Notes under the pieces: generated by a model
The model's database searches: none
The model's input: only the letters and a program-made list of their open reading frames with translations
What the model was told of the DNA's origin: nothing
Shown here: one piece after another, positions 20,730 to 64,000 of the stretch
Position numbering within the stretch: position 1 is the first letter of the stretch
How the letters are laid out: every line of letters begins with the position of its first letter
Assembly (NCBI GenBank): GCA_963662465.1
Contig: OY759599.1
Location: forward strand, 6,976,001 to 7,040,000
DNA: 64,000 bases
Origin: Desulfatiglandales bacterium
GTDB lineage: Bacteria > Desulfobacterota > DSM-4660 > Desulfatiglandales > Desulfatiglandaceae
Direction of reading: 5' to 3'
Made by a program: the position numbers and the translations under genes

Positions 20730-21004
20730 TAGATCAATTAATATTAAAAATCCTTGCTGTGTAAAACTATGAATCAACAATATGCGCTAAATATGGACAT
20801 TAACATGCAATATGGTATAATATCAAGGTGTTTTTAGCCAAATGTTAGCTTTTTGTTAAAATGAAAACAAAAAACCGCTTGCTCTGTTAAATTCACGAGA
20901 GCGATGTGCGAAGCGTATTTATCTGGGGCGGAATCAGCGTAACCTGCCCGCAATCCTTAGCAATGTAAGGCAGGTGGGTTCGCCAAATTCGTGCCAAAAA
21001 AGCC

Positions 21005-21033
21005 TTGACAACCCCACTCCCTTTCCATAACAC
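21005..21033 (+). promoter_or_regulatory. Degenerate sigma70-like promoter of MarR leader module 1
   Basis: TTGACA-17-TAACAC; homologous to 36030-36058. Confidence 0.45.
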
Positions 21034-21052
21034 TCTTTTTATAAACAATCTC

Positions 21053-21190
21053 TATGAACAGGAAATACACTATCATCTCCTAATGTTCCTGACCTCGGAA
21101 ACGAACCTCTCCCAACGGAAAATGGCCAAACGGGTGGAGGTCAGTTTGGGTAAAATTGACTCTGTCAGTTCACGGAACTGACAGAGAAAT
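21053..21190 (+). pseudogene. Degenerate EPS-associated MarR regulator fragment
   Basis: YEQEIHY..L...SQRKMAKRVEVSLGK matches the copies at 36067 and 60704. Confidence 0.75.
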
Positions 21191-21231
21191 GCATCTTTTT
21201 AGGCCCCAAAATAGGCTGAAATAACGAGGTC

Positions 21232-21257
21232 TGTAATCCAAAGGGCGGAGCTGTATC
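21232..21257 (+). promoter_or_regulatory. ops/JUMPStart-like motif C (also ~22281, 27454, 35304, 36488; variants ~47003, 55468, 61144)
   Basis: TGTAAYCCAARGGRCGGAGCTGTATC recurs; resembles the CCAGGGGCGGTAGCGTG end of JUMPStart. Confidence 0.55.
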
Positions 21258-21355
21258 CCCCCAAAGCTAAAAAACCCATGAAATCCGTGCCAAAACAATA
21301 ACGCCAATAAGGAAATCCTGACCCCATGATTCTCATGGGTGTTCCTCCGGTTATC

Positions 21356-21628
21356 ATGATATTTGAGTGGGATGATGAAAAAAGCCGCAGCAACCAAATC
21401 AAACACGGCATTGATTTTGATACGGCGAGGGTATTATGGGATGACGGCAGTCGCGTTGAAATCCAAAGTCCGTATCCGCTTGAAAGTAGAAGTATTCTGA
21501 TAGGTAAAATAGACAGGAAACTATGGACTGCGATTTTCACGAGACGCGAAGGTGCCGTGCGAATTATATCAGTCAGACGGGCCAGAAAGCGGGAGGCAGA
21601 ACTCTATGACCAAAATAAAATTGGCTAA
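21356..21628 (+). CDS. BrnT family toxin
   Basis: FEWDDEK..SN..KHGIDF ... RIISVRRA. Confidence 0.9.
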   Translation: MIFEWDDEKSRSNQIKHGIDFDTARVLWDDGSRVEIQSPYPLESRSILIGKIDRKLWTAIFTRREGAVRIISVRRARKREAELYDQNKIG

Positions 21629-21872
21629 AACTATTGAGGAATTTGACCAGAGATTCGACGACGGTGAAGATATCCATGAATTGATCGATATGTCCGAGGC
21701 CAAGGTTCTTCGGCACGGTCGGAAGATTCGTATCACACTCGACGTGGCGGAAGACCTGGTTAGAGAAATCGATAGCATCAGAGATATGATAGGCGTGGAT
21801 CGAGGGGCCTTGATCAAGGTGTGGCTATACGAAAGGGTAAAACGAGAAAGAGACTTGAATGCCAAGGGTTGA
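21606..21872 (+). CDS. BrnA/CopG-type antitoxin
   Basis: EEFDQRFDDGEDI, GVDRGALIKVWL; overlaps the toxin. Confidence 0.85.
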   Translation: MTKIKLAKTIEEFDQRFDDGEDIHELIDMSEAKVLRHGRKIRITLDVAEDLVREIDSIRDMIGVDRGALIKVWLYERVKRERDLNAKG

Positions 21873-22368: not shown

Positions 22369-23280
22369 ATGAAAATCAACCATCTCGGAGCAAAAAATTG
22401 CGTCACCGGCTCATGTCACCTGCTGCAGACCCGTCCGGCTTCAGCCGGTGGGCTGAGCAATGCCGGCCACATTCTGGGATCATGTTTTATCCGTTTTGAA
22501 ATCCCCACGGAAACCCCCTCTTCAGTGATTTTCTCAGGAGACCTCGGATGCACGGACACACCCATTTTACCCGACCCTGACACACCCGACGCCTGTGATC
22601 TTCTGATATTGGAATCCACCTATGGAGACAGAAACCATACCAACAGAAAAGACAGACTCAACGCTTTGGAACAATTACTCCATAAAGCCCATGCTGACAA
22701 AGGCATTGTTTATATCCCCGCATTTTCCCTTGGAAGAACCCAGGAGCTGATTTATGAACTGGACCGGATAGGAACAAAGGTTCCCGTGTTTGTGGATTCT
22801 CCCCTCGGCCTTAAAATTACAAAAATTTATTCAGACCTTGAAAAATTCTGGGATAAAGAGGCAAAGGCTCTCAAGGCAAAGGGCGACCACCCCATTGATT
22901 TTAAGAATCTCTACGCAGTGGAAAAATACCGGGATCATAAAAAACTCCTGAATATCTCCGGCCCTGCCATCATCATAGCCGGCAGCGGCATGTGTACAGG
23001 CGGCCGCATTGTGGATCACCTGGAACACGGACTTGAAGATCCGGCAAATGATATCTTTTTTGTGGGATACCAGGCAAAGGGAACACCCGGAAGGCGAATG
23101 ATTGAGAAACAAACTCCGGTTAAAGCAGGCATCCATACCCTTACAGGTTATTCAGCCCATGCCGATCAGAACATGCTTGTCAACTGGGTGAAATCCATGC
23201 CCACTCCGCCAGGGGAAATCCGGCTGGTTCATGGGGAAAGCCACGCCCGCCATGCCCTTGCCCGAGCATTGGAATTATAA
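22369..23280 (+). pseudogene. Beta-CASP MBL-fold metallo-hydrolase (RNA-processing type), internally deleted
   Basis: VTGSCHLL joined almost directly to AGHILGS, so HxHxDH is missing; FSGDLG, ESTYG, GYSAHAD, LVHGE present. Confidence 0.85.
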
Positions 23281-25793: not shown

Positions 25794-26271
25794 TTGAGAT
25801 TCCTGACCGATGGGTGTTGTGATGCTGGACTGGTGATGTCCTTAAGAGGTGATGGGCATGATGTCTCATGCGTATCGGAGAGGCACGCCGGCGGTTCTGA
25901 TGACGAAGTCTTGACTGAAGCCTACATCGAAAAACGATTCTCATAACAGAGGATAAAGATTTTGGAGATCTTGTATATCGACTTAAAAAGCCTGTAAGGG
26001 GAGTAATCCTGATTCGAATGGATGTAAACTCTCATGGCAAGGGGCTTTGCCACCCCCTCGCATGAAAATGACATTAAGCTAACAGGTAACAGTTAACAGG
26101 TAACAGCTAACGGCTAACAGCTAACAGCTGCATTTTCATGGTAAAGAAAGACACATGAAGTGGCGCCGATTGAAGAATCTGCTAATAAATCACGAGATAC
26201 GGTTGTCGGGTCATTTTGTTGTCGTTGATGTTAACAAATTTCGGTTTCGGCCCTTGCTTTTTTCAGTATAG
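25794..26271 (+). pseudogene. DUF5615 PIN-like toxin; frameshift plus ~117-bp insertion
   Basis: LRFLTD..CD, GHDV, EDKDFGDLV, GVILIR; interrupted at ~26029-26142. Confidence 0.8.
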
Positions 26272-26390: not shown

Positions 26391-26457
26391 AAGAGGCCCA
26401 CATATCAATCAAAAAGAGCAGTATGTAACTGACGTTCCTCTTTTCACCTTGCTCTTG

Positions 26458-27022
26458 ATGCCCCGCGCCAACCGACATTTTATCCCCGGCTATATTTGGC
26501 ATATCACCCATCGATGCCATAAGAAAGAGTTTCTTCTAAAATTTGACAAGGACAAAAGTCGCTGGTTATGGTGGCTATTTGAGGCGAAGAAGCGCTATGG
26601 AACGTGTATCTTGGATTACATGGTTACGCGATCTCAATAGGGTCCGAGCTGGAGTGGTGAGCCACCCATTGGAGTGGGGGCGTTTTAGCGGTTACAACGA
26701 AATTCAGAACCCTAAAGAGAGATACTCGCTCATTGATCACGCACAATTGGTGACTCTTCTCGGCAAGGAGGGCATAGATGACCTCATTGGTTCGCACGCC
26801 ACTTGGGTGGATGAAGCCGTGAATCAGGGAAACAAGCCACGTGAGGTCAAGTGGACGGAAAGCATCGCGGTTGGAAGCAAAGAGTTCGTGGAAAAGATCA
26901 AAGAAAAGCTAGGGGCCTTATTTCTGAGTCGTAAGGTGGAAGGGGAAGAGGCGTTATGAACTCCACGATCCACAACGCCCCTACAGGCTTACAGAGAATT
27001 CCTTTCCATGGCGGGATCTTTA
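26458..27022 (+). pseudogene. RAYT type B transposase, internally deleted
   Basis: Near-identical to 42215-42976 but lacks the segment with the HUH motif (NHIH). Confidence 0.9.
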
Positions 27023-27162
27023 GCGAAAACTTTCAGAGCTCTTTCTTAAAACCCGTTTTTTAGGGTCAAAAGGGGGGGGGTAAGGGTCTAAAACAGGCCT
27101 CTTTTTGTGGTTATCGTAGTTATTACAAGTTGTTGCTGAGGACCGACCCCAAGAGAAGGAAA

Positions 27163-29682: not shown

Positions 29683-29983
29683 ATGCTTAAGAATTTATCA
29701 AGCCGGGATGTCGCATGGGTGTTGAGTCAACTTGGCATTACCTTTAAGAGGCATGGGAAAGAAGACGTTTTTGATGGGTTGTACTGGCAGACTTACAGAG
29801 AATTCCTTTCCATGGCGGGATCTTTCGCGAAAACTTTCAGCCGCTCTTTCTTAAAACCCGCTTTTTAGGGTCAAAAAGGGGGTTTTAAGGATCTAAAACA
29901 GGCCTCTTTTTGTGGTTATCGTAGTTATTACAAGTTGTTGCTGAGGTCCGACCCCAAGAAAAAAACAAAGGCGAGGTGAACTT

Positions 29984-30495: not shown

Positions 30496-30740
30496 AAAGG
30501 TTACGCGAAAAACTCCCTTCACGCCTTTCTGTTCGCATGGGTGTTCAAAAGGCAGTCATGAGAGGTTCGGAATTAAGAACGAATCACCCAGTGTTGGAAA
30601 AATTAAGTTGACAAAGTTGCCAACGTTTCCCCATGCGGGCATCGAATCCCTGGGGGGCAAGATCGCCATAAGAAACTATTAAGTTCATATCAAGCAAAAA
30701 GCCGTATGTAACTGACGTTCCTCTTTTCACCTTGCTCTTG

Positions 30741-31107
30741 ATGCCCCGCGCCAACCGACATTTTATCCCCGGCTATATTTGGCATATCACCCATCGATGC
30801 CATAAGAAAGAGTTTCTTCTAAAATTTGACAAGGACAAAAGTCGCTGGTTATGGTGGCTATTTGAGGCGAAGAAGCGCTATGGAACGTGTATCTTGGATT
30901 ACATGGTTACGCGATCTCAATAGGGTCCGAGCTGGGGGCCTTATTTCTGAGTCGTAAGGTGGAAGGAGGAGAAGGCCGATATGAACTCCACGATCCGCAA
31001 CGCCCCTACAGGCTTACAGAGAACACCTTTCTATGGCGGGATCTTTAGCGAAAACTTTCAGTAGCTCTTTCTTAAAGCCCTCTTTTTGGGGTCAAAAAGG
31101 GAGTTTT
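30741..31107 (+). pseudogene. RAYT type B, doubly deleted, with partial site B
   Basis: Same first deletion junction as the 26458 copy, plus a second deletion at AGCTGG. Confidence 0.9.
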
Positions 31108-31136
31108 AACTTACATTAGGATGAAGGAGGTTGCAG

Positions 31137-31415
31137 ATGGAAACACAAACATCAAAAACAAAAACCTCTTCTTTGAAAGCCATTGTTCGCGAAACCATAC
31201 AGAGCAATTTGTTGGAAGGGATTATCGAAATTCCTAACGAACTTAGGGATCGTTTGGTGGAGGTGATTCTTTTGCCTGTTGTTAGTGAAAAACACAACGG
31301 TCAAAGTAATATGAAGTCAGGTTCCTCTCTGAAGCGCTTCGCAGGTGCATGGTCCGGGGGACAACTCGTCAGGGAAGATCAGGGAAGCTATGAGGTCCGT
31401 GAGGAGCTGTTATGA
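31137..31415 (+). CDS. Putative antitoxin
   Basis: AGGAGG RBS; GAWSG..LVR..QG.YE.RE; precedes a PIN gene. Confidence 0.75.
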   Translation: METQTSKTKTSSLKAIVRETIQSNLLEGIIEIPNELRDRLVEVILLPVVSEKHNGQSNMKSGSSLKRFAGAWSGGQLVREDQGSYEVREELL

Positions 31416-31712
31416 TTGCCGGATACCAATGTCTGGATTCGCTTCTTAAATCCTGGAGAGAACCATGTCAAAAATCACTTTCTTTCAGCTGATCCAGCAA
31501 CAATTTGGCTTTGTTCGGTTGTAAAAGCCGAATTGTTCTTCGGTGCCCTGAAAAGTGCTCGAATCAAAGAAAATCTTCGGCTTTTGGATGAATTGTTTGC
31601 AAATTTCGATTCTGTTTTTTTTGACGACGATGCTGCTCGAAAATACGGCGAGATCCGTTCGGATCTTGCTCGGAAGGGTACTCCAATTGGTCCGAACGAT
31701 TTGATGATTGCG
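31416..31712 (+). pseudogene. VapC PIN toxin truncated by a transposase remnant
   Basis: DTNVWI, AELFFGA, GTPIGPNDLMIAA, then foreign sequence. Confidence 0.85.
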
Positions 31713-32436
31713 GCTATTGATGGTGGTTTCAGTGCGAATGTAATACCCGGTTTTGTTGTACTGCTTGATGGCGTTACCTCGAAACCAGTGTTTGATGCAC
31801 GCATTATTGTCATACAGCCGCCGGAATGTCTTGGATGTTGATCGGCGATGAGGCCGACGATTAAAAATCTGTGAAATCGTATCGGGCAATCCGAGACGGT
31901 GGAACTTATCCAAGAGTCGTTCAAAGAGGCTGGTACAAAAACGCGCTGATCGAAACACAATATTAGAAGAAACTTCGACCTGGCTTGAATACCAGTCGTG
32001 ATAAAGGAATTTGGATCGGGTTGACATTTCCTTTGTCGAATTTGAAGAAAATATTCATCCAGTAGTTGATCCTGTTAAGTACAGCTCTGCCAGTGAGAGA
32101 CGCAGCGGCTTTTTGAAAGGCCTCTGGATTTTCAACGTCAACAAATGCGTTTTCGCTGAGCCTGTATTTGATGCCTTGTTTGTCGAGCTGGAGTTGAATG
32201 GCATTGTGGCCGTTGAAATAGAATTCTGCACGAATTTGAATATGACCATTGAGTTGGTCGGTTAGAATCCTCATTACACCGTTTGACAACCCTTTGAATC
32301 CGAGAGCCCTGAGGAGCCTGACAATGCCTGCTGGAGAAAAGAGGGAGAGAATGTAGCCTCGAATAATAACCCGATCGAAGCAGAAATATTTGAACTTGAT
32401 ATTTTTTGAGAATTGATTCAAAAATGAGTTCTTCAT
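31713..32436 (-). mobile_element. Degraded putative transposase of a family I cannot name
   Basis: FDRVIIRGY, YFNGH, KQYNK..RTETTIN across frameshifted ORFs; short related pieces at ~28172-28212 and 21333-21351. Confidence 0.55.
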
Positions 32437-32742
32437 GGGTGTTCCTCCGGTAAGTGAGTGTTGGCTAAACAATCCATACCGGATCGCCCATGAAATTCCA
32501 AATCAAAGAAGGGGATTTTAGGCAGGGGGTAAGAGACTTCAGGATGGTCAGATGGGGTCAAGCGCTTCATCAACTTTAATATCCGGGATTTGCCCCGGCC
32601 GAAAATATTTAACCATCATGTCATTAGCCCCCTGCCTACAGCCCTTTTCGGAACTTTAGTTTGGTAAACTATCACGGTAATCGGAAAATCGAAAGAAACG
32701 CATGAATGCATGGGCGTCCCCCTGCCCCCGGAGCGAGCAAAA

Positions 32743-33069
32743 ATGGAAAGAGTTGCAGCTGACACTATTGAAAGCAGGTTTTCTTGTATGCCGAATGCAG
32801 AGAAAATGTCCGTAATTACCCACGGAGCGGCGTTACTTCTTTCGGAATGGAAAAAGCGCCTTTTCCTTGCGGAAAGCAAAATTCGGCATTTTGAGGACAA
32901 ATACCATTCCAGTTTGGCCGATATTGAAGAGAAAGGACTGCCTGACGATGCTGACTTCGAGATGCACGAAGAGTACATTATGTGGCGCCACTGGACGGAC
33001 GCGGCTTCGAAAGCCAGGAAAAGGGTTTCCGATTTAGAGTTCATCGCAGGACAGGGCCTGCACTGGTAA
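32743..33069 (+). CDS. Hypothetical antitoxin-like protein
   Basis: FEDKYH..L......GLPDDA.FEMHEEYI.W; follows a site A variant. Confidence 0.6.
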   Translation: MERVAADTIESRFSCMPNAEKMSVITHGAALLLSEWKKRLFLAESKIRHFEDKYHSSLADIEEKGLPDDADFEMHEEYIMWRHWTDAASKARKRVSDLEFIAGQGLHW

Positions 33070-33103
33070 ACCGAGCTATGTTGGCTACTGAACGACTGTT
33101 GGA

Positions 33104-33429
33104 GATTATCTTAGACGAAATTGAATGGTCACATATCAAGGAAACGCTTCGTCTTTTAGGCGACAAAAAATCATTGGCCGCTTTGGTAGAGTCTCATGCC
33201 ATTCGTGACAGAGGTGGAAGACCTGAAGGGATCGACCCGGAAGACGCCTTCAAAGATGTATAAGATAATCATTGCCAAAAATGCTCAGAAAGATTTATCC
33301 TGGTTTAGAAAGAACGATAGAAGCAGTTATATAAAATGCTTCTATTTGGTGAGAGAGGTCATGCAAAATCCAAGGGGTGGCACAGGAAAACCTGAACGTC
33401 TGAAGTACTTCGAAAAAGAAGTCTGCTGA
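33104..33429 (+). pseudogene. Truncated duplicate of the YefM/YoeB pair at 52614-53139
   Basis: Near-identical DNA; antitoxin start and toxin end are missing. Confidence 0.9.
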
Positions 33430-33509
33430 AAGCTGAAAAGATAGGGATGAGGAAAAGCTGTAGACTTGCGAGACAATGTCCCTCATTGGGCACAAGGAGA
33501 TGACGATAT

Positions 33510-33776
33510 ATGCCGAGAATAACTCTTAAAGAAACCATAATCAAAGAAATAGATATTCCAATGGAAGCGTTATATGACCTGATAGACAATCTGTCTCGGG
33601 AAGAACGGGAGAGCGTTTTGAATAGACTGCGAAAAGAACCTGTAAAGCTCAAAGTCTTCCAGAAGGATAAAATTGAATCAATTTTAGGCGATTTTACATC
33701 TACAAATATTTATGAGGATGATTTTCTAACAGATTTAGAAGAAGGTTTAAAAAAATCATCTGTTTATAGCAGATAA
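33510..33776 (+). CDS. Putative antitoxin
   Basis: Small acidic ORF with AGGAG RBS, upstream of a RelE-like gene. Confidence 0.7.
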   Translation: MPRITLKETIIKEIDIPMEALYDLIDNLSREERESVLNRLRKEPVKLKVFQKDKIESILGDFTSTNIYEDDFLTDLEEGLKKSSVYSR

Positions 33777-33780
33777 CCTC

Positions 33781-34035
33781 ATGCCTTTCATAACCGAACT
33801 TAGAGACGACATTGAGAAATTCATCCAGAAGCACGGCCTTTCAAAGAAATGGGAAAAAGCCAGGAGGCTTTTTGAAAATGATCCCTCGCATCCTTCTCTA
33901 AATATCGAGCTATTGGAACCAAAACATCGGCTGATCTATTCGTTTCGTGTAGACAAAAAATTCAGAGCAATCTTCATCTGTTTGCCCGGCGAGAAAGTGG
34001 AAATAGTCGCAGTAACGAAACATTACCATAAGTGA
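33781..34035 (+). CDS. RelE-like toxin
   Basis: F..DP.HPSL..E.L......YSFRV. Confidence 0.75.
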   Translation: MPFITELRDDIEKFIQKHGLSKKWEKARRLFENDPSHPSLNIELLEPKHRLIYSFRVDKKFRAIFICLPGEKVEIVAVTKHYHK

Positions 34036-34079
34036 AAAATGCCGTCGCCATGTCCAAAAACGTGAAGAAAAGGGTCGAA

Positions 34080-34315
34080 AAGATAGGGATGAGGGATGAC
34101 AGAAGGGCTGAGGGATGACAAAAGGGATGAGGGATGAAAGGTGAAAGCTGAAAAAAACAGGAGTGAAAGCTGAAATTAGAGAGGGAGGATGGGGTTTCCG
34201 CATAAGATCTGAAGAAGCGGGAGTTTAGGGATTGAACGAAAAGGGCCAAACGATGAAAGCCAACCCCTCAACCCTGTTATCACTCTCCCCCTTCAGCTTT
34301 CATCCCTCACCCCTG
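34080..34315. repeat. Heptamer-like AGGGATG/AAAGCTG repeats with an inverted partner
   Basis: agggatgagggatga...tgaaagctgaa versus ttcagctttcatccctca. Confidence 0.7.
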
Positions 34316-34368
34316 TCTTTTCAAAGGAAGAAGGGGAGTTAGGTGAATAACCTTGCAAACCTTTCAAC

Positions 34369-34598
34369 ATTATGGTGAGGCCCAAAGCGCTGAACCAAGA
34401 GCTGATTTTGTCCATAAAATGCGATTGGCGCTGAAAGAATTAAGAGAAACCAGGATATGGTTACTTATAATCGTGAGGTCTGACTTAATAAAACCTGCAT
34501 CAAAACTTGATGACTTGTTAGATGAAAGTAACCAATTGATCTCGATTTTTGTTAAAAGTATAGGCACTGCCAAAAAGAACAAGGAGAAGACTTCATAA
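34369..34598 (+). pseudogene. Four-helix-bundle protein, 5'-truncated
   Basis: YGEAQSAE.RADFVHKM..ALKELRET..WL; followed by ATTCGAC repeats. Confidence 0.85.
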
Positions 34599-34674
34599 TT
34601 CGACATTCCCTGTTCAACATTCGACATTAAATCAACCTGTTAGATTAAATACAGCCATTGTCTAAAAAATGTTG

Positions 34675-35079
34675 CTTTTTTGTATTGCACCCTAAGAGGA
34701 AGGGTCGAAAAGGCGCCTACTGGGAAGATCGCTATCATGCGACGGCGATAGAAACAAACAGACATTTGTCTCAGTGTCTTGTTTACATTGACCTCAATAT
34801 GGTTCGTGCAGGAGTCGTAGATCATCCGCCGGACCAAAACCAAGTATTGCAGTAGGCAGTGAATCCTTTGTCGCCGCTACGAAAGAAGCCTTTGGAAACA
34901 AAGGGGAGGGGCGGGAAATTATTGGGGGTGATGGGAGCTATGAACTCCGAGAGACAGCAGCGGCTTACAAGGGCGTTTTTGGGGATGAAAATGCTGCTCT
35001 AAGGGTTCAAAATGAGTATTTCTGGAAAGATTCTCATTGAAAATCAATAAGATGGTGCTTAAATTCTTGGTCCGACCCC
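34675..35079 (+). pseudogene. Divergent RAYT type B fragments with site B
   Basis: RKGAYWEDRYHATA, YIDLNMVRAGVV. Confidence 0.85.
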
Positions 35080-35423
35080 AAAGCCCGCCCAGCAGGGCGA
35101 GCATGCCGGATAAACGTAACGATAAGGTGTAGAGTTCATAAAAGGTGAGAAACTCACTGAAAACTGCAAAAAGTCCGCAACGGACTTGATGCTGAATTGC
35201 GCAAAAAATTTTGGACATAGGGTAACTACCTGTTATTACAGGGTTTGCAGTTTTTTGAAGTTTTTTCTTGACAGGAGCATTATAGGATGTCCCCCATTAC
35301 GCATGTAATCCAAGGGGCGGAGCTGTATCAAAAGAAGCTATGGCAATGTGAAACAAACCCCATTAGACACACTGAGGTTCGACCCCAAGAGCATTACATT
35401 CCCATGCATCGTAGGAGGTAAAA

Positions 35424-35663
35424 ATGTTACTGAATTATACTGCAAAATATTCCAAAATCGCTTCTGGCTATATGGGTCAGTTAGTTGAATGGCCTGAAGT
35501 TGTGACTGAAGGCAAGGACATAGAAGACTGCCGCATGATGTTGAGAGATGCCCTTAATGAAATGCTTCTAGCTTATAAGCAACAGAGAAAGGAAATACCC
35601 ATAGGTGGGGCTCTGATTGAGCAAGTTCCAATAGAGGTTCAGGATGTCTATCAAACGGCGTGA
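35424..35663 (+). CDS. HicB family antitoxin
   Basis: YMGQLVEWPEVVTEG..IE.CR.ML.DAL. Confidence 0.85.
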   Translation: MLLNYTAKYSKIASGYMGQLVEWPEVVTEGKDIEDCRMMLRDALNEMLLAYKQQRKEIPIGGALIEQVPIEVQDVYQTA

Positions 35664-36058: not shown

Positions 36059-36066
36059 TTCCCCAT

Positions 36067-38466: not shown

Positions 38467-38492
38467 ATACGCCCATACGGAGGTTTTCACGC

Positions 38493-46558: not shown

Positions 46559-46565
46559 TCGCCCC

Positions 46566-48444: not shown

Positions 48445-50242
48445 CAGCAATTCCCGCTTAGATTCTAAAGGCGCTAGGACAGTACCTTTTGGCATTTCCT
48501 TTTCGTAAAGCTTTACGTTGAATGAATAGCCTGAAAAGGCTTTTTTCTCCAATTTTTAAAATAAAACAGGAATTTTTTTGGCAATTCTCAGAAAAAGCTG
48601 GACTTTCAGATCAACTTGGCCGATGATTACTGCCTATGGGAATCAGAAGCCAAAAAGGAAGAAAAGAGAGAGGCAAGATTGGAGTTCGCAAGCATCTTAA
48701 TGCAGATGCAATTTTCAAGCGTCTGCATAAAGATTTTTCTGAAGTCTCTGACTGCCGTGAGGATCCCGATATTACTATTGCGGATGCCTTGATGTCCGGG
48801 TTTGCAATGTTTTCGCTCAAGGAGCCATCGTTGCTTGCCTTTGATGAAAGAAGAAAAACCGATAGTAATCTTGGGAACATATACCATATTGGAAAGATCC
48901 CATGTGACAGTACGATGCGCACCATTCTTGATGAAGTGCTCGCAGAAGAACTTCGGAAACCGTATAGGAATATCTTCTGGGAACTGCAAAGGGGAAAGGT
49001 GCTTGAACGTATGGTATTTTTCGAAGGTTGTTATCTTCTATCTTTGGATGGAACGGGTTTCTTCTCATCGAAGAAACTTTCCTCTGATAGTTGTTTGGTA
49101 AAAGTATCGAAAAAAACCGGCGAAAAAACCTATTATCAGCAGATGTTGGGGGCAGCAATTGTCCATCCGGATTTCAAAGAGGTCATTCCGCTTGCTCCGG
49201 AATTCATAGTCAAGCAGGATGGCCAAAGCAAGAACGACTGTGAGCGTAATGCCGCGAAACGTTTCTTGCAAAAGCTAAAAGAGGAGCATCCCCATCTGCC
49301 TATCATTATAACAGAGGACGCGTTAAGTTCGAATGCACCCCACATTGAAGAAATACAAAAGCAAAATTTTCATTATATTCTGGGAGTTAAAAAAGGAGAT
49401 CACCATTTCTTGTTTAATCACGTCGAACAAGCGCGGATAAATGGTGACGTCACTGAATTCGAATTGGTCGATAAAGAGGATCCGGAAAAAATACATCGTT
49501 TCCGATTTATTAACCAGGTACCTCTCAATGCCTCTAACAAGAATATGCTGGTTAACTTTCTGGAATATTGGGAAATTACACCGAAAAAAACAAAACATTT
49601 TAGTTGGGTGACAGATTTTTTAATAGGAAAGGACAATGCATACCAGCTAATGCGAGGCGGCCGTGCGAGATGGAAGATCGAAAATGAAACCTTCAATACT
49701 CTTAAGAACCAAGGATATCATTTTGAACACAACTACGGGCTCGGCAAGAAGAATCTGAGTGTTGTTTTTGCGATGCTCATGATGCTGGCATTCTTGGTGG
49801 ATCAAACTCAACAGCTTTGTTGCCCTCTATTTATAGCCGCATGGCATAAACTCGGCTCAAAAAGGGAATTGTGGGAACGGATGAGAGCTTTGTTTAGAGA
49901 TTTTGAATTCAAATCGATGAGGATGCTCTATGAAGCCCTCTATTATGGCGTAAAGTTTCAAGCGCCAGTTATTCTATATAACAGTGGTTAAATTTGTCAT
50001 GCCCAAGTTCGCATACAAAAATGCTCTCATTAATAAAAAACTGGAGATTCCGGAAATGGATATCTCTGCCCTAACTCGTGCTTTTATGCTCTTACTCTTG
50101 TCAAAGAAGCTCAACCTGCAAGAAATCGAGGGAGGTAATAGTGGATTTAATACAATTTTTCTGAAAAGGATCTGATCTCAGGGTTTGTTTTTGAAATATG
50201 TTTTTCAAACTCTGTGAGTAAATTCTTGACCGGGAATTGCTG
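48445..50242 (+). mobile_element. Complete 1798-bp IS (inner layer)
   Basis: 12-bp IR CAGCAATTCCCG / CGGGAATTGCTG; 9-bp TSD TATAAATGC. Confidence 0.92.
48636..49991 (+). CDS. DDE transposase (ISNCY/IS4-like; family uncertain)
   Basis: SLDGTG, KNDCERNAAKR, TEDAL, GRARWKIENETFNTLK. Confidence 0.88.
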   Translation: MGIRSQKGRKERGKIGVRKHLNADAIFKRLHKDFSEVSDCREDPDITIADALMSGFAMFSLKEPSLLAFDERRKTDSNLGNIYHIGKIPCDSTMRTILDEVLAEELRKPYRNIFWELQRGKVLERMVFFEGCYLLSLDGTGFFSSKKLSSDSCLVKVSKKTGEKTYYQQMLGAAIVHPDFKEVIPLAPEFIVKQDGQSKNDCERNAAKRFLQKLKEEHPHLPIIITEDALSSNAPHIEEIQKQNFHYILGVKKGDHHFLFNHVEQARINGDVTEFELVDKEDPEKIHRFRFINQVPLNASNKNMLVNFLEYWEITPKKTKHFSWVTDFLIGKDNAYQLMRGGRARWKIENETFNTLKNQGYHFEHNYGLGKKNLSVVFAMLMMLAFLVDQTQQLCCPLFIAAWHKLGSKRELWERMRALFRDFEFKSMRMLYEALYYGVKFQAPVILYNSG

Positions 50243-50251
50243 TATAAATGC

Positions 50252-52229
50252 CGGTGCATCATCAAATCAACAAACTGGTCAATCTGAAAATCAACCCAGA
50301 CCTTTCGGTCAGAAGAATGATCGGCAGAAAATCCCAAAGCTTGAACGAAACAGGCTGGAAGAAGGTAAAAAATCAGCACCTGTAAGGAAACGAAAAAAAA
50401 AGAAAAAATCAAATAAAACGAAAACTGCCAAGAAAAAGCGTGAGGGAACTCTATCATCGGATGATGATGCCTCTCACATTGCAAACAAAAGGAAAAAGGT
50501 CAAAAAGATTAACGTTACAGCAGAAAGAGTTGACGATATACCCCTATTGATAAAGGCCATGGTGAAAATGGGTATACAAGAAGCTATAGACCAACACATC
50601 CCAGTTCAAAAGAACCAAAGAGATTTGAGCTGGGGATGGACGGCTGTTATATGGTTGGCATATATGTTATCGGAGGGAGACCATCGCAAAGTAGTCGTCC
50701 GGGAATATGTATCTGGAATGCGGCATACCTTAATCGAATTAACAGGATTGATAATCTCCGAAAATGATTTCACAGACGATCGTTTAGCGAATCTTGCCAG
50801 GTATTTAAGCGATAACGATATTTGGAGCAAAGTTGAAGAGAGAATAAGTGGCAATACGATTGAAGCATATGAGTTGCCGGAAGAAACTGTCAGGGTTGAT
50901 GCTACGACTGTATCCGGCTACCACAAAACAGTTGAAGGTGGGATATTCCAATTTGGTGTTAGTAAAGACGACCCCAATAGACCGCAAATAAAAATCATGA
51001 CGGGTTCGCTGGATCCTCTTGGGATGCCGTTAGCCACGGATGTTGTTCCAGGGCAAATGGCCGATGACAAATTGTATGCACCTATCATAAGTCGCATTCA
51101 CTCTATGCTCCAGAAACAAGGTGTCCTTTATGTGGGCGATTGCAAACTGAGTTCTCTTGAAAATCGTTTACACATTAAGGAAAAAGCGGAAGGACATTAC
51201 TTATGTCCATTGCCTAATACTGGGAAAACCCCAGAATATATGGAGAAATGGATAGATGAAGGAAATTTGAAAGACAAAAAGAACGAGTTGATAAAGTACA
51301 TCGTCCAAGACGATAAAGGTCAAGAGGAACTGAAAGCAAAAGGGTATGAGATAGAGCGTAACCAATCTGGTGAAATAAATGGAAAAGTGCTGAAATGGAA
51401 GGAACGCGTATTGATTGTAAAATCACCAGCGTATGAAAAGCAAAAAGAACTGGGATTGGAACGACGGCTTAAAAGCGCCGAGGAAAAATTATATGCTCTG
51501 ACACCACCAAGAGGCCCGGGGAAAAGGCAGATCAAAGAAAGAGAAAAATTAATAGAATCAGCAAAATCGATTTTGAAAAAACATAGGGTGAAAGATTTCC
51601 TTAAATATGAATATGTGCGGGAAGTAGAAAGTAAAACGAAATATATTGGTAAAGGTAGAGGGAGTGTCAAAAGAGAGAAAAAGGTTGAAGAAAGAATACG
51701 TTATCAAATAACAAAAGTGACACGGATTAAGGAAGCAATAGATGCGGAGAAGAAGAAGTATGGGTGGAAGGCCTATGTTACAGATGTATCAAAGGAGCGA
51801 CTTGATTTTATTGATGTAGTTAGGTCTTATCGAAAACAATACCGGGTTGAACGAATATTTAACCGACTGAAAAGTAGGCTAAACATCGCTCCATTTTACG
51901 TAAAAAGGGAAGATCAAGTTAAAGGAATAACGCATCTTCTGATGATAGGAGTCAGGGTAATTACTCTGGTTGAATTTGTTGTTCGCCGCTCATTAGCAAG
52001 AAGCGACGAAAAGCTTGTTGGATTGCACCTGGGAAATCCCAAGAAAGCTACGAACAATCCAACGTGTGAGAAGCTATTAAATGCTTTCAGCAAAATTACA
52101 TTAACGATAATTGAAACAGGAGATAGTGTGATAAGACATCTAACCCCACTTTCTCAATTGCAACGTGAAATTCTAAAACACTTTGGACTTAGCACTTCTA
52201 TATACGATAATTTAGAAGTTATGCAATAG
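50252..52229 (+). CDS. IS1634 family transposase; 5' part at 48323-48444 separated by the inner IS
   Basis: ERVDDIPLL, RVDATT, FGVSKD..RPQ, YVGDCK, YR.QY.VER.F..LK. Confidence 0.88.
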
Positions 52230-52613
52230 TAAAATATTATCGTCATAGTCCTTACAGGTTGTCACAATTGAAATACAGATTTTACGACAATTTATATGAT
52301 TGTTGGAGATATGGAACGATGGTGTTTTACGCACGATCCATTCCATTTTCTGCCCTATTGTGTTGTTCCAATATTCGACGTGTGTTGTTTTTCAGGCTTT
52401 ACTAACCCATGGATGCATGTTGCTCAAAAAGACTCCTGGTAGGCTTTCCGGAAATAACTTTTCCCCCTGCCAAGAGAGGTACCCTCTACCAGATTTCGAA
52501 ATTAATCGAAGTGCAAATTTAAAACGCGAACGATAAGTAGGATGTCCCCTATTACGGGGTTTTCCATGGTCCGACCCCAATCCACCATTGTCTGAACCGG
52601 CAAGGAGTTTGAA

Positions 52614-54387: not shown

Positions 54388-54530
54388 GTTTAAGGTGTAA
54401 GGTGTAAGGTGTAAGGTGTAGGGTGTAGAGGGGGTAGGAAAAAAGGTATAAGGCATAGGGTTTAAGGTATAAGGTATAAGGCGAACCCCGCACCTTGTTC
54501 CCTACACCTTAAACCTTAAACCTTAAGCTT
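54388..54530. repeat. Inverted heptamer repeats, (AAGGTGT)n ... (ACCTTAA)n
   Basis: Direct reading. Confidence 0.85.
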
Positions 54531-54668
54531 ACAGGCTATTCAGCCCATGCAGATCAAAGCATGCTGGTCAATTGGGTAAAAGCCATGCCTGAACCTCCGG
54601 GTGAAATCCGGCTTGTGCATGGGGAGAGCAGCGCCCGCCATGCCCTTGCCCGGGCATTGGGACTGTAA
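54530..54668 (+). pseudogene. MBL hydrolase C-terminal fragment (third allele)
   Basis: TGYSAHADQSMLVNWVKAMP..PGEIRLVHGE. Confidence 0.85.
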
Positions 54669-55242: not shown

Positions 55243-55562
55243 GAAATATCGAATATGGGATTGCCTGTGCACGCTCTGCACGAACATCCCCAAGTCTATA
55301 TTTTCTTAAAAGCCCCTTTTTGCCCCAAAAAGGGAGTTTTAAGGCCTAAAATGGGGCCTTTTTTTCCATCTATTGTAGTTATTACAATGGGTTGCTGAGG
55401 TCCGACCCCAAGAGCTAGCGAAAAAAGTAATTAATCCAGTCATATAAATGATTTTCCTTTATGGAAGTCAAGGGGCTGAGCTGTATCAGCGCATCGGTAT
55501 TTTCAAAGGAAGAAGGGGAGTTAGGGGAATAACCTTACAAACCTTCCAACGTTAAGTATTTA

Positions 55563-56327: not shown

Positions 56328-56630
56328 ACAATTAATCCCGAGGTAACAAATCTTGAACAAGGACCGGATAAACGGACACCTTCACCTTTAAGCTTTTATA
56401 AAAACAGCGTAATCTGTGAAATCCGCCTGCCCCGTTCAATTTTTACCCCGTTAAACCTTCTTTTTCCTTTGTTTAACTGGGGCACGCCAGTGACGAGTGG
56501 AACGTATTTAACCGGGGTGCCAAAAAAACTAAAGGTTCACCAGTAAAGTAACAAAAGCACCAACGTTATATAATAAAAAAACCAACAGGTTACACTCCCC
56601 ATTACACATCTGTGTCCTATTTTAAAAAAA

Positions 56631-59580: not shown

Positions 59581-59862
59581 GTATGGATAACGACCCACCT
59601 GGGGTTTGGTTGATTGCTTTTCGTTTGTGGTTATGAAAGAAAAACGGATAAAACAAGCATTAACCTTTGATGATCACTTCCGACAAGCAGGCTTTCAAAC
59701 GCCGTTGCTTGGGTAAAGCACCGACTCCTCGCCCGGCTGCCCTTTTCAATACTGAAAGACGGGGTCGTGGGCTATTTTGAGGGAAGACCAGGAACGGATT
59801 GCTTCAATCATGGAAAAGACTGTAAGCCTGTGTTAACAAATTAGACTGGTTTCTACCTTTTT

Positions 59863-60051
59863 ATGCTGAATATTGCGCAACGAAAGACGCTGGTAACGAT
59901 CTTAATCGAAGTAGGCAAGTTTACTACTGTTGGTATGGTTATTGGCTATTTTGTTTCTCCTCGCCCAATTGCCGCAGGAGCGGCTATTGCCGGTGTACTT
60001 TTCGCACTTTGTTGTTTTGTAGTTGCTGTACTCATCAGCAAGGAGGTGTAG
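59863..60051 (+). CDS. Small 2-TM membrane protein in the duplicated cassette
   Basis: Near-identical to 36659-36847. Confidence 0.65.
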   Translation: MLNIAQRKTLVTILIEVGKFTTVGMVIGYFVSPRPIAAGAAIAGVLFALCCFVVAVLISKEV

Positions 60052-60052
60052 T

Positions 60053-60295
60053 ATGGATATTATGACATGGATCTTTTTATTTGGCGCCGCCATAGTGCTT
60101 GGTGTTGGTTTCTGGATCATTTCTGGATCATCCGGCAAGACCGGCGTAGGAATAATGCGGATAATACCAAATAGTACATTGCTTAACATCCAAAGACTTC
60201 CAAGGCAAGAAACCTATCCGCGTGTATCTGCGAAAATCTGCATCCCAATAGAGAAAATGACAGAGCAATGGAACACGATGTTCAGCGGTATTTAA
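60053..60295 (+). CDS. Small membrane-anchored ORF
   Basis: AGGAGG RBS; hydrophobic N-terminus; 3' extent uncertain. Confidence 0.5.
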   Translation: MDIMTWIFLFGAAIVLGVGFWIISGSSGKTGVGIMRIIPNSTLLNIQRLPRQETYPRVSAKICIPIEKMTEQWNTMFSGI

Positions 60296-60336
60296 CAAAG
60301 AAAGTTTGTCACGCTAGTCAACAACGTCCCCCTGCC

Positions 60337-60580
60337 TTATGAGATGGTTATTGGAGAGTTCTCAGCGGACATATTTGTGGAAAATGAAATCATCGTAGAA
60401 CTCAAAGCGGTTGAGCGGCTGATGAAAGTGCATGAAGTGCAAGTGGTGAACTACCTAACAGCATCGAAAAATGAAATTGGCCTCCTAATCAACTTCGGCC
60501 CAACAGGCGTGAAAGCAACCCGCAAATACCGAAAACCCCTCAACCAGGCACAAAGAATCAACCCAAAAAAAATCCTGTAA
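60337..60580 (+). pseudogene. GxxExxY 3' half
   Basis: Near-identical to ~46085-46326; begins just after site A. Confidence 0.88.
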
Positions 60581-60703
60581 AATCCTGTTAATCCTGTCTA
60601 AAAAAAATACAAAAAATTGTATCCAGTCAGAAAATGGATGCGCAAATTCTCACTGCAAAAAAAACCATTGACATCTTCACCGTCTTCGCCTAGTGTTCGC
60701 CCC

Positions 60704-61090
60704 ATGAACCATCTTTACGAACAAGAAATACGCTACAAAGTCCTGAAACTCCTGGCATCCAAGGCCAATCTCTCCCAGCGGGAAATGGCCAAACGAATGG
60801 GCATCAGCCTGGGTAAAACCAACTATGTCCTCACAGAACTGGCCAACAAAGGCATCATCAAAATAAAACGGTTCAAAAGCGCCCCCAGCAAAGTCCCTTA
60901 CACCTACACGCTGACACCCCAAGGCCTTGAAGAGAAGGCCAAAATAACCCTCAAATTCCTGAAACGGAAACTCTCTGAATACGAAGAGATCAAGCGACAG
61001 ATAAAAGAGATTGCAAAAGAAGCCGAAAAAGACAAAGTTCTCGATTACACAGGCGCCGACACAAACGAAGTATTGGCTCAAATCATTTGA
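60704..61090 (+). CDS. EPS-associated MarR family regulator
   Basis: SQREMAKRMGISLGKTNY, YTLTPQGLEEKA. Confidence 0.9.
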   Translation: MNHLYEQEIRYKVLKLLASKANLSQREMAKRMGISLGKTNYVLTELANKGIIKIKRFKSAPSKVPYTYTLTPQGLEEKAKITLKFLKRKLSEYEEIKRQIKEIAKEAEKDKVLDYTGADTNEVLAQII

Positions 61091-61199
61091 CGAAAGAAAA
61101 CAGCAATTATTCCAGTCATATAAATGATTTTCCGTTATGGAAATCAAAGAGCGGAGCCGTCTCCGAAGGCTGAGTGAGTGTTCCGAGAAGAGGTGAGAT

Positions 61200-61454
61200 A
61201 TGCTCAATCAAATCAATATTGAATATCCCCAAAATTTACCCGATATTCTTCAAACAACAAAGAAAGATTTTGAGAAAGAAGCCAGGATGGCAATGGCGGT
61301 AAAGTTGTTTGAAATGAAAAGATTGTCATCCGGGATCGCAGCAACATTGGCAGGACTTGACAGAGTCAACTTTTTGCTCAACCTTCATCGGTTCAATGTC
61401 CCAATGATAGACCTTGATGAAGATGAACTTCTATCGGATATCCAAAGTGCCTGA
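61200..61454 (+). CDS. UPF0175 family antitoxin
   Basis: MAVKLFEMKRLSSG.AA.LAG..RV.FL. Confidence 0.88.
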   Translation: MLNQINIEYPQNLPDILQTTKKDFEKEARMAMAVKLFEMKRLSSGIAATLAGLDRVNFLLNLHRFNVPMIDLDEDELLSDIQSA

Positions 61455-61944
61455 AACAAGAGAGCTTGTCATTAATACAGGACCTTTACTGGCCCTCATA
61501 GCCGGCATTGGCGACTTGTCATTGCTGGAGCCGCTCTACAAACATGTACTTGTTCCTTTTGAAGTCTGTCAAGAAATTGAAGCGGGAGGAACTTCCGGTT
61601 TTGGGGTAAGTGAATTTCGAAGAACCATGTTTATTGAAAAAAGAACGCATTTTTTGAATATTACTCCATTTCTTGGCAATGTACTCGATTTAGGCGAGGC
61701 TTCCGTTATTCAACTCGCTTTGGATGAAAATATTTGTACAGTTTGTATTGACGAGGCCATGGGCCGGAGAATTGCACGATTAAATGGGCTCCAAGTAACA
61801 GGTTCGATTGGGGTGTTAATCCGTGCAAAAAGAGCCGGATTTGATTTTTCGATGCGAGAAGCCACAAATCGAATGCGATCTAAAGGGATATATTTGAGTA
61901 AAAAAGTCATCGATTTTGCAATTAAGCAGAGCGGTGAAATCTGA
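61447..61944 (+). CDS. DUF3368 PIN-like protein
   Basis: VINTGPL.AL, LDLGEASVI.LA, IDE..GR..A...GL.VTGS.GVL..AK. Confidence 0.88.
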   Translation: MPETRELVINTGPLLALIAGIGDLSLLEPLYKHVLVPFEVCQEIEAGGTSGFGVSEFRRTMFIEKRTHFLNITPFLGNVLDLGEASVIQLALDENICTVCIDEAMGRRIARLNGLQVTGSIGVLIRAKRAGFDFSMREATNRMRSKGIYLSKKVIDFAIKQSGEI

Positions 61945-62219
61945 AAATGGTTATGAAGGTTACCAGGCCGAGAATATCTTCTTTATTGAAACAAAGTCAC
62001 AGGGCACCAACGTTCTGTTATCCCCTATCGTACCTTATTATAAAAGGGAAAGTGATGACATGTGAATGGAAACCTGGCAACTTAGCTGTTTCCCGAGCCT
62101 AAGCGGATACAGTGTTTATTCCGGATTCCGGCCGGGACAAACAATCCTTAAAATCCTGTGAATCCTGCCTGCCCCGTGAAACCCGTTTTGTTGTTTCACT
62201 GGGGTCTAAGAAAAACAAG

Positions 62220-63461
62220 ATGCCCCGCCAACCAAGACTTGACGCTCCAGGCCTCCTCCAACACGTCATGCCGGCTCCGTTCAATTCCGCAGGACAGCGT
62301 AGCGTATTTAACGGGGGCCCGGGGAATAGAACGACGAAAGATCTTCCTCGATGACAAGGATCGCGAGTCTTTCCTGGAAAGGTTCGCCAATATCCTTGAA
62401 GAAACCCAAACGCAATGCTACGCTTGGGCCTTGATTCCAAATCACTTCCATCTTCTTTTACGAACAGGCCCTACCCCACTCAGCAAGGTCATGCGCCGCT
62501 TAATGACCGGATACGCCGTGACCTTCAACAAAAGACATAAACGTTCCGGCCATCTCTTCCAAAACCGACCTGCCCGACATCGGCTTCGCCTTCAGGCGAG
62601 GCGGGCGGGTACAAATCCGTTGTGTGCGAGGAAGACACCTATCTCCTGGAACTGGTCCGCTACATTCACTTGAATCCGCTACGGGCGAGCCTGGTTCAGA
62701 ATCTCCAAGAGCTCGACAAATACCCCTGGACCGGCCACAGCGCCATCATAGGCCGACGAAAAAACCCCCTAATACCAGAGGTCAGCGATCAGAAGTCGGA
62801 AGTCAGCAGCCAAAAAACACCCAGAGCCCCCTCCGTCGCAGACGGATTGCCTTTTTCCCTTTCGTCCGGAAAGGGAAAAAAACAACAAAATAATCCTGAT
62901 AATCCTGTAAATCCTGTCAAAGAAAAAAAGCTGTTAGCCGAAAAGACCATCGAAGATACCCTCCTCCATTTCGCCGAAACCAAAAGAGCCGCTATAAAAA
63001 AGTATCGAGAATTCGTGGAAAAAGGGATCAAACAGGGTACCCGCGAAGATCTTCAAGGAGGCGGCCTTGTCAGGAGCGCCGGTGGAGATGCGGCAGGCCT
63101 TCTCGGGCGTAAAGCAGAAGAACGGGAGAAGGGAGACGCGAGGATTTTGGGGAGTGGTGATTTTGTTGAGACAACCCTTCACCAGTCTGAAAAATTGCTT
63201 GAAAGGAAATATGGACCCAAGAAAGCGATTGAAGATTTGATAAAGGATGTTTCAGAGGTTTTCGGAGTATCTCCTGAGCTGATTTGTTCAGGGAGCAGAA
63301 AGCCTAAAATCTCTGATGCCCGAGCTATTGTAGCACATATGGCGGTTGAGGAAACGGACCACAAGGCAACGGATGTAGCGAAACATCTTGGAATTAAGCA
63401 AACAAGCGTTCTACAATCGGTGAAGAAGGGGAAGGTTCTGTGTAATAGAGTAGGGCTATAA
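62220..63461 (+). pseudogene. RAYT type A transposase disrupted by two short palindromic insertions
   Basis: Homologous to 37342; extra 46 bp (62271-62316) and 41 bp (62569-62609); site A at 63482. Confidence 0.9.
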
Positions 63462-63503
63462 GCGTAAACTAGTGAAACAAGCAACGTCCCCCACCCCATT
63501 ACG

Positions 63504-64000
63504 TTCGGTGCCACCCATCATGGCCAAAAATCCTGCGGCCTTTCCACCATCGGCTGCACCTCCTTCTTCCCGTCCAAACCCCTGGGCTGCTACGGCGACG
63601 GCGGCGCCGTCTTCACACACGACGACACCCTGGCCGACAAAATGCGCCAGATCCGCGTTCACGGCCAAAAAGCCAAACACCAGCACCCCCTGGTGGGTAT
63701 TAACGGCCGCCTCGACACAATTCAGGCAGCCATCCTTCTCGAAAAAATCGACCTCTTCCCCGAAGAATGCCGTCTCCGCTGGGAAGCGGGTCAACGGTAT
63801 AATGAGCTCCTGACGGGTATCCCTGGAATTCAGGTTCCAGCGGTTGCTGAAGGAAATGATTCGGTTTATGCCCAATACACCATGCTGACAAAAGACCGTG
63901 AAATGCTATCGAATGCTCTGAAGGCCGAAAGCATCCCGTCTGTTGCCTACTATGCCGTGCCTCTTCATCTCCAAGGCGTATTTTCAGATTTGGGTCATAA
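63504..64000 (+). pseudogene. DegT/DnrJ/EryC1/StrS aminotransferase, 5'-truncated at site A; runs off window
   Basis: CTSFFPSKPLGCYGDGGA, N.RLDTIQAA; open frame with no start. Confidence 0.88.

Follow-up and report, generated by a model that had tools for sequence, protein, structure and literature searches.

The 64,000-nucleotide stretch analysed here (hereafter referred to as the window) corresponds to positions 6976001-7040000 of the 8.16-Mb single-contig genome of a Desulfatiglandales bacterium (OY759599.1; genome G000). From about position 21000 onwards, it holds a long array of toxin-antitoxin (TA) modules and other small genes, separated by short sites in one orientation. The analysis as a whole leads us to propose, with a probability of about 0.5, that this array is a pile-up built mainly by the one-ended activity of Y1/HUH transposases of the TIRYT family. 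The sites are not a new class of repeat; sequence comparisons identify them as the inverted repeats at the termini of TIRYT/TIRtron elements, which correspond to TnpA-Y1 subclass 2.1. Both the enzymes and the repeats of this family are known, and what appears to be new is a clade of one-ended enzymes, together with its arrays. Such a one-ended transposase lineage hints at a mechanism by which genes might accumulate with no integron involved.

The array sites as terminal repeats

Positions 1-19400 of the window carry housekeeping genes with a GC content of about 50%, which drops to 40-47% from about 21000. The first-pass annotation had described a dense, co-oriented TA array at 21000-64000. The array does occupy this interval and extends about 80 kb beyond the window, to a genome position of roughly 7.12 Mb; a second, smaller locus of similar kind lies at 8.09-8.13 Mb. 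A Pfam scan of 108 open reading frames (ORFs) of the window, 86 of them in 21000-64000, yielded matches to BrnT, HicA (three), HicB/UPF0150 (two), DUF433 (two), DUF5615, DUF1902, Unstab_antitox (three), ParE (two), PIN (six), YoeB (two), HigB, MazE, Phd (two), TacA1, UPF0175/DUF3368 and AbiEii, several of which score below the Pfam cut-off. When remnants and unscored partners recognised in the sequence are added to these matches, the total is about 25 modules or remnants (24-27). Every Pfam-positive ORF in 21000-64000 lies on the + strand (just four minus-strand ORFs of this range were scanned).

The oriented sites ending in (C/T)G(A/T)CCCC were also borne out. This motif occurs 47 times on the + strand and eight times on the - strand of 21000-64000 (mean 6.5 and maximum 14 in 200 shuffles), and a stricter site pattern occurs 29 times forward and once in reverse (shuffle mean 0.55, maximum 3), with a genome-wide density of about 0.35 per 10 kb per strand. 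The long motifs for the two site types first recognised, A and B, are nearly confined to the locus rather than evenly spread over the genome, with 10 of 12 and five of six genomic copies, respectively, in the window. Site A follows the transposase genes 37342 and 62220, site B follows the gene 42215 and its remnants, and both are also found behind cargo genes. The notion of just two types had to be abandoned, as the sites of related arrays form 16 clusters with at least seven copies each. The structure of an end is a 20-25-bp arm followed by a C-rich tail of about 10 nt. Folding of the type A end yielded nothing stable (-2 to -6 kcal/mol). Type B has a hairpin some 60 nt ahead of its arm, which lacks a GTAG foot. 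An Rfam search gave no match. The transposase genes, ends and TA genes are as follows.

37342-38424, + strand: type A TIRYT (Y1/HUH transposase) of 360 aa (Pfam Y1_Tnp and Bac_DnaA_C, alignments)
38413-38465, + strand: right end of 37342, with an arm ending CAACGT at 38433 (site A junction), a C-rich tail and a 22-bp stutter duplication
62220-63500, + strand: broken type A TIRYT with two palindromic insertions (~62270-62316 and ~62569-62609) and a right end at 63487 (site A junction)
42215-42976, + strand: type B TIRYT of 253 aa (Y1_Tnp), HUH and Tyr present, no left repeat
42998-43110, + strand: right end of type B, with a 40-nt hairpin, then an arm ending GGTCCGA at 43100 (site B junction) and a tail
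26401-27160, + strand: internally deleted type B copy with right end (self-comparison, 76-98% identity)
29788-29963, 30686-31109 and 55302-55413, + strand: other type B remnants (self-comparison, 76-98% identity)
~34690-35080, + strand: type B remnant read from the sequence
21300-63500, + strand: some 40 TIRYT ends, of many types and all in the same orientation, interspersed with cargo genes (motif list; types common to related arrays), with junctions at, for example, 22167, 25152, 27332, 29150, 32717, 35290, 35382, 35882, 37182, 39251, 39566, 44572, 45086, 45232, 47841, 52574, 53219, 53485, 54308, 54373 and 60327
21326-61944, + strand: about 25 TA modules or remnants (BrnT/A, HicAB, DUF433/DUF5615, ParE, PIN/VapC, YefM/YoeB, HigB-like, UPF0175/DUF3368, AbiEii; Pfam)

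The 37342 protein has an HUH motif (H60/H62), Y119, the motifs NHFH and YIHLNP, a clade-specific loop at about residues 150-177 and a C-terminal DnaA-IV-like helix-turn-helix (HTH) domain (Bac_DnaA_C, E 3e-10). The best fold match of its predicted model (pLDDT 81) was TnpA-REP (4ER8, E 7.7e-7), followed by IS200/IS605 transposases, and the tail of the model matched DnaA domain IV (1j1v). A sequence search of the PDB gave just weak matches (E 0.3-0.6), and neither transposase was named by an NCBIfam scan at 1e-25. The 42215 protein carries the motifs NHIH and YIDLNM and has no DnaA_C match in Pfam. Alignment indicated that the catalytic residues are intact in both proteins. No left terminal repeat was found for 37342 (best match 11/20).

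Relatives with two ends clarify the nature of the sites. Elsewhere in the same genome, a dispersed gene for a 334-aa Y1+HTH protein is bracketed by GGGGACGTTCGTCAG and its reverse complement, and a gene for a 326-aa Y1+HTH protein is bracketed by GGGGTCAAGTCCGCTCTTGA and its complement. The first of these elements (1.09 kb) is present in four full copies (94-97% identity) with unrelated flanks and occurs also in genome G010; the two-ended copies elsewhere in the genome behave as insertion sequences. A search for empty sites of the two-ended element yielded no usable empty allele. Among the metagenomic relatives of 42215 (65 of 80 examined), at least 31 have site B again in inverted form, at a distance of 107-150 bp upstream. 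The two-ended relatives are bracketed by inverted repeats, and sites A and B are therefore right-hand terminal repeats, which upholds their initial attribution to the Y1/HUH genes. At G000:C1:1431400 and other two-ended element ends, a long poly-C run and tandem stutters lie directly outside the element, suggesting slippage or repeated rejoining at the junction.

The one-ended clade and related arrays

In a set of 35 full-length relatives, the 19 closest to 37342 (at least 54% identity) formed one side of a branch with support values of 93/96. The loop was common to the 13 closest proteins displayed and absent from the eight two-ended proteins displayed. The left repeat was absent from all 15 scorable members of the 19 (best match 11-14/20; four unscorable) and present in 12 of the 16 relatives outside the clade (one doubtful, three unscored). 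The two closest relatives of 42215 also have no left repeat.

Clade members are frequently located in arrays with sites in one direction. Such arrays recur in related genomes, for which the record titles name mainly deltaproteobacteria and Desulfobacterales. The strict forward and reverse counts were 101/1 in 120 kb of G139, with 17 more sites upstream, 31/1 in G114, 11/0 and 9/0 in G007, 11/0 in G068 and 12/0 in G149, and TA cargo was present in those arrays that were scanned. A phylum-wide search with exact 16-mers, too strict for mapping the distribution, had matches in 9 of 401 genomes. Polysaccharide genes lie at 12 of 20 clade loci, the other eight being short contigs, loci with other neighbours or unscanned. 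The G139 array runs into an intact flippase-NeuB-epimerase operon, and G139 also holds introns, IS110 elements and serine recombinases. The array strand is the G-rich strand in the window, and weakly so in G139, which is compatible with lagging-template targeting, though confounded with gene orientation.

A compact array on a contig of G005 (C3:1-5682, L045) carries MarR_EPS and TA pairs 75-97% identical to those of the window. Its ends are of a third type, GCCTGA then CCCC (seven forward, none in reverse). Upstream of the G114 array (L179:16470-19403) lies a CRISPR-associated primase-polymerase-like gene scoring below the cut-off.

Breakpoints and competing explanations

Breakpoints were analysed on 219 shared segments (at least 150 bp and at least 88% identity) from 20 array regions, including those of kin genomes, which are not independent. 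Six regions were omitted (G022a, G126, G083, G063, G047 and the second G000 locus), four were trimmed to their array parts, segments more than half multi-copy elsewhere in G000 were dropped, and the site pattern misses degenerate sites. The 3' segment ends fell at a site in 66 of 339 cases (expected 9, maximum 20 in 300 draws) and the 5' ends fell just after a site in 60 of 318 cases (expected 13, maximum 28), corresponding to a 4-8-fold enrichment. This excess held for long near-identical segments (23/116 and 23/97), for segments involving this genome (13/149 and 20/134), and without G139 and without transposase-coding segments. For two control repeat classes in the same arrays, breakpoint counts were within chance.

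The breaks cluster at +3/+4 and from +8 to +13 past the arm. From +4 to +10, tails of one end type show higher identity than tails of different types; at +11, identity is down to the background level. The tail of about 10 nt travels with the end, not with the cargo, and the units are therefore not precise cassettes crossing over at CCCC. The same cargo was found behind different ends, with linkers differing in six of six pairs and homology often beginning at the ribosome-binding site; the difference in upstream ends in all six pairs is forced by construction, and the informative points are that such pairs exist and that their linkers differ. Tail stutters follow 92 of 423 junctions, versus 35 at random positions. 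The scan for filled and empty sites returned 74 pairings, nine of which end at a site; these nine come from just three places, most of them being artefacts produced by multi-copy mosaics. One clean pair was obtained, in G114, with an 88-bp insert ending in arm and tail and no target duplication. Given the spread of the joints, the differing linkers and this insert, the moving piece looks like variable upstream DNA plus end and tail. The recurring segments of the window are listed below; the two copies of 43179-44582 both stop 10 nt past a type B junction and begin just after different type A ends.

35413-35853, + strand: HicBA module, behind a type B end here and behind type A ends in L064 and G135 (90-94% identical), with a different linker each time
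38492-39212, + strand: antitoxin-PIN module, between two sites here and in G139 (91% identical)
43179-44582, + strand: 1.4-kb segment containing vapBC, duplicated at genome 7087682-7089085 (99.8%)
36571-37186, + strand: duplicated segment, second copy at 59775-60331 (99-100%), stopping 4 nt past a type A junction

Two candidate lines of evidence were discarded. Contig joints considered as a sign of excision matched other genomic copies when traced (e.g., 32727-43179, 37186-46085 and 43108-39079), and an exact crossover between the T and the CCCC of the junction was dropped because the linkers differ and the tail follows the end type.

These data suggest the following mechanism for one-ended activity of the TIRYT transposases, by analogy with the one-ended transposition of IS91/ISCR elements. 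The HTH domain would bind the arm, and the HUH/Tyr core would nick within or just beyond the tail. A strand ending in the right end, with upstream DNA ranging from the bare end to several kb, would then be joined into the leader of a polysaccharide operon, often just behind an earlier end. The pieces would have ragged 5' ends, with site-to-site units produced when a piece happens to start at the previous end, and a short end landing behind a TA pair would turn that pair into part of a movable piece. Deletion would erode other genes, addiction would keep the TA pairs, and other mobile elements would add to the same hotspot. The choice of strand, the preference for the polysaccharide leader and the retention through TA pairs are likewise inferred. 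A bolder version, which we advance tentatively, is that a domesticated one-ended Y1/HUH clade actively captures and stacks DNA at the heads of surface-polysaccharide operons, with the right end as a portable joining site. Were it true, the system would perform the function of a superintegron without an integrase, its array stabilised by TA pairs, and it might also drive the replacement of downstream polysaccharide genes.

Several observations weigh against one-ended TIRYT activity as the main builder of the array. About 80% of the breakpoints lie away from sites, many of them plainly unrelated deletions, the 3' excess between different loci is weak (10/158, expected 3.2, chance maximum 9), and segments cross a site 27 times versus 45 stops. 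No circle or excision junction was found in four contig sets, contigs being prone to drop rare forms. The enzyme is present in G126, G083, G063 and G047 with 0-1 sites nearby. G010 shares pieces 96-100% identical, yet its 140 kb contain just four strict sites in each direction, and a clade member is lacking at E<=1e-85; G022 has TA and GxxExxY genes with sites at 0/2. Many array ends resemble the ends of two-ended elements, and the resident enzyme thus need not be the actor. The branch support of 93/96 is not starred and the sequences compared were gathered by similarity to 37342.

A passive recombination hotspot is the serious rival, and a possible explanation, if a somewhat doubtful one. According to this hypothesis, a tolerant, often exchanged polysaccharide leader receives insertions of ordinary TIRtrons with two ends, of TA pairs and of other small elements, and the ends are scars; left ends and transposase bodies would have been deleted, and host recombination at repeats of 25-35 bp would shuffle the remainder. 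The preponderance of breakpoints away from sites, the many internal deletions, the several unrelated element types and the TA-rich polysaccharide mosaics with few sites (G010 and G022) are all consistent with it. Homology by itself also draws breakpoints to repeats, and it is within a single locus that the excess is greatest (58/191). A passive hotspot would leave unexplained the strand biases of 101:1 and 29:1, the consistent absence of a left end in a clade with an intact active site, and the presence of the same cargo behind A- and B-type ends that share just the C-run; moreover, breakpoints are not in excess at two other repeat classes of these arrays.

Precise integron-like cassettes, in which the enzyme would recombine two direct-repeat sites at CCCC, excising and reinserting gene-plus-site circles, seem improbable. 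One-strand exchange of this kind is permitted by HUH chemistry, as outlined in the available text of PMC8266576, and there are site-to-site duplications in G139 (1531 bp and 1145 bp, >99%) and in the window (43179-44582 and 38492-39212). Against this, a start behind a site in both copies was seen for only 11 of 213 segments, four of which also end at one; the linkers from C-run to cargo differ, the tail follows the upstream end type, there is no fixed integrase or attI position and many units are fragments. The first-pass annotation had proposed that RAYT transposases capture and stack gene-plus-site units at a shared CCCC. The one-directional ends, their recurrence with TA cargo in relatives that lack an integron integrase (G139 and G114) and the concentration of breakpoints at ends favour the first half of this proposal; precise units joined at CCCC do not survive the end-type-specific tail, the linkers, the remote breakpoints and the large amount of truncated cargo.

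It is very unlikely that another actor (the GxxExxY nuclease, nearby tyrosine recombinases, a group II intron or IS110 proteins) built the array, with the TIRYT ends as passengers. GxxExxY genes and 9-bp repeats do occur in the array, tyrosine recombinases are encoded 4-13 kb past the window, with a group II intron beyond, and G139 has the further elements mentioned above. The 9-bp repeats show no breakpoint excess (7/339, expected 2.9, maximum 10), and the tyrosine recombinases reach 25-41 bits with the integron model, for which the cut-off is 265, and belong to clusters that are multi-copy elsewhere.

TA-rich arrays are typical of chromosomal integrons, and the genome has five TIGR02249 (integron integrase) matches over the cut-off. 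The nearest lies about 200 kb off, with none within about 150 kb of the array, and three of the five adjoin IS91 transposases. No TIGR02249 match was found at E<=1e-30 in G139 and G114 (94% and 90% complete); matches are present in G007, G010 and G068. A heuristic attC scan, which found its one control, gave one non-intergenic hit in 43 kb of the window, one in 104 kb of G139 and none in G114. Unitigs of two runs, possibly from the source sample, cover 30 of 30 bins of 31200-47900 and span gene-site-gene junctions, the 43179-44582 duplicate is a single unitig at about double depth, and related arrays occur in other assemblies. An integron or cluster of attC sites lacking integrases (CALIN) can be set aside here because there is no linked integrase and no attC array, as the first-pass annotation had noted, and the unitig evidence makes misassembly, its other concern, equally remote. 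A 64-bp stretch (41476-41539) is skipped by contigs of all four runs and matches the ends of other contigs; it is possibly an assembly or polishing artefact.

Further features and comparison with known systems

In addition to TA modules, the array contains MarR_EPS copies, fragments of polysaccharide operon genes and DDE insertion sequences.

Within 21326-61944, + strand: two ORF6N genes and an AAA_14/DUF4143 gene among the TA cargo (Pfam)
36067-36456, + strand: MarR_EPS regulator (TIGR04176), with other copies or remnants at ~21041, 46566 and 60704 (four in the window)
22369-23280, + strand: beta-CASP metallo-hydrolase fragment (Pfam and self-comparison), with another fragment at 54528-54668
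63504-64000, + strand: fragment of a DegT-family aminotransferase (polysaccharide pathway), with 75% identity to the DegT gene located at 8.107 Mb
45919-46326, + strand: GxxExxY nuclease gene (TIGR04256) between 9-bp tandem repeats, which form a class of their own; a remnant lies at 60339-60580
47996-52538, + strand: two DDE insertion sequences, one nested within the other, with multiple genomic copies; later passengers (Pfam, genome comparison)

The motif GGGCGGAGC, which we take to be ops/JUMPstart-like, recurs at 21241, 22289, 27463, 35312, 36497, 47004 and 55470. The 9-bp tandem repeats tied to GxxExxY genes lie at 28745, 35977, 37299, 39510, 45880, 46314, 46430, 60568, 62139 and 62888, nearly all in one orientation, the last copy being located within the variable loop of the broken transposase. 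Tandem repeats of 7 bp were found at 26017-26147, part of a dispersed element of about 125 bp with many genomic copies, and at 34080-34170, 34598-34630, 36455-36480 and 54389-54520; one set adjoins a four-helix-bundle (23S rRNA IVP family) remnant at 34353. Short palindromic insertions (62170-62203, 62270-62316, 62569-62609 and 56430-56521) also occur inside the clade transposase genes of relatives, some of them in frame. The tyrosine recombinase gene clusters lie within the extended array at genome 7044-7053 kb, with similar clusters elsewhere in the genome, and the group II intron is farther downstream. The contig start (~20-60 kb) and 8.09-8.11 Mb share sequence, with identical site flanks and similar MarR_EPS and DegT regions, reflecting either a genuine duplication or an untrimmed overlap. 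At genome 4416001-4436000, five tandem 399-aa frames with 1609-bp spacing adjoin an integron-integrase-like gene; the one frame scanned is an IS91-family transposase.

If the TIRYT enzymes are active on lone ends, they would constitute a second means, alongside integrons, of building large shuffled gene arrays, and they might drive variation of the cell surface. Even a passive origin would account for a recurring, unannotated architecture and make TIRYT function directly testable. The locus offers a candidate substrate and role for subclass 2.1, in the form of a defined end (arm and tail) with a break predicted at +3 to +13. It also offers two-ended insertion-sequence copies, as well as a sister clade with a single end that is associated with TA arrays at polysaccharide loci, the largest of them about 120 kb long.

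The TIRYT/TIRtron family (Di Nocera et al. 2013, PMC3733652) corresponds to TnpA-Y1 subclass 2.1 (Quentin et al. 2018, PMC6006769), reported in about 15% of strains, and to RAYT group 1 (Bertels et al. 2017, PMC5581495). The portions of these papers available to us give no tested substrate, role or activity data for it. The enzymes described here share with the family, as it is presented there, the Y1 HUH core, the NHFH and YIHLNP motifs, the C-terminal DnaA-like HTH, the absence of REP hairpins, terminal repeats beginning GGGG-W-S and a prevalence in deltaproteobacteria. The published consensus is GGGGWSAS; the ends here read GGGGACG(T/C) or GGGGTCGG, such that GGGG-W-S fits and the last two positions differ. 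A TIRtron has both terminal inverted repeats, whereas the 37342 clade has the right repeat alone and an extra loop, and the ends here, unlike published TIRYT repeats, form one-directional arrays of tens to more than 100 with TA cargo. The word "toxin" has no match in the main text of Di Nocera et al., and its matches in the accessible text of PMC6006769 and PMC5581495 are unrelated to such arrays. The family and its repeats having been described in 2013 and 2018 (PMC3733652, PMC6006769), the parts are known; the novelty suspected at first is thus confined to the one-ended clade and its arrays, no description of which was found in the literature searched, covering few subscription papers and no supplements, where the terms TIRYT or TIRtron were used by just two works.

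REPtrons (TnpA-REP, 4ER8) and IS200/IS605 TnpA share the predicted fold, and the same 5'-phosphotyrosine chemistry is expected; HUH enzymes leave a 5'-phosphotyrosine and a 3'-OH able to prime synthesis or to attack another end, according to the available text of PMC8266576. Unlike REPtrons, the present elements have no GTAG-tagged hairpins, their sites lie in one locus and one orientation, and no TnpB was seen. The resemblance to IS91/ISCR elements lies in an HUH enzyme, the absence of target duplication and a fixed end that mobilises adjacent DNA if the other end fails or is missing, as set out in the accessible part of PMC13181058. IS91 belongs to the Y2_Tnp family, with oriIS/terIS palindromes and a tetranucleotide target, whereas the enzymes here are of the Y1/RAYT type (both Y1_Tnp), with repeat arms. 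A fixed end with a variable other end fits the breakpoint excess and the 88-bp insert, and most breakpoints are left unexplained.

Sedentary chromosomal integrons and CALINs are long, co-oriented, TA-rich arrays of small genes with oriented sites, the contents of which are shuffled between genomes. The array described here resembles them in its length, co-orientation, oriented sites, TA content and shuffling of contents between genomes. A constant crossover or cassette boundary is absent, since the breaks are spread from +3 to +13 and the linkers differ. Unlike integrons and CALINs, the array has neither attC structure nor a linked IntI, its boundaries are non-uniform, and its sites are transposon ends of many types.

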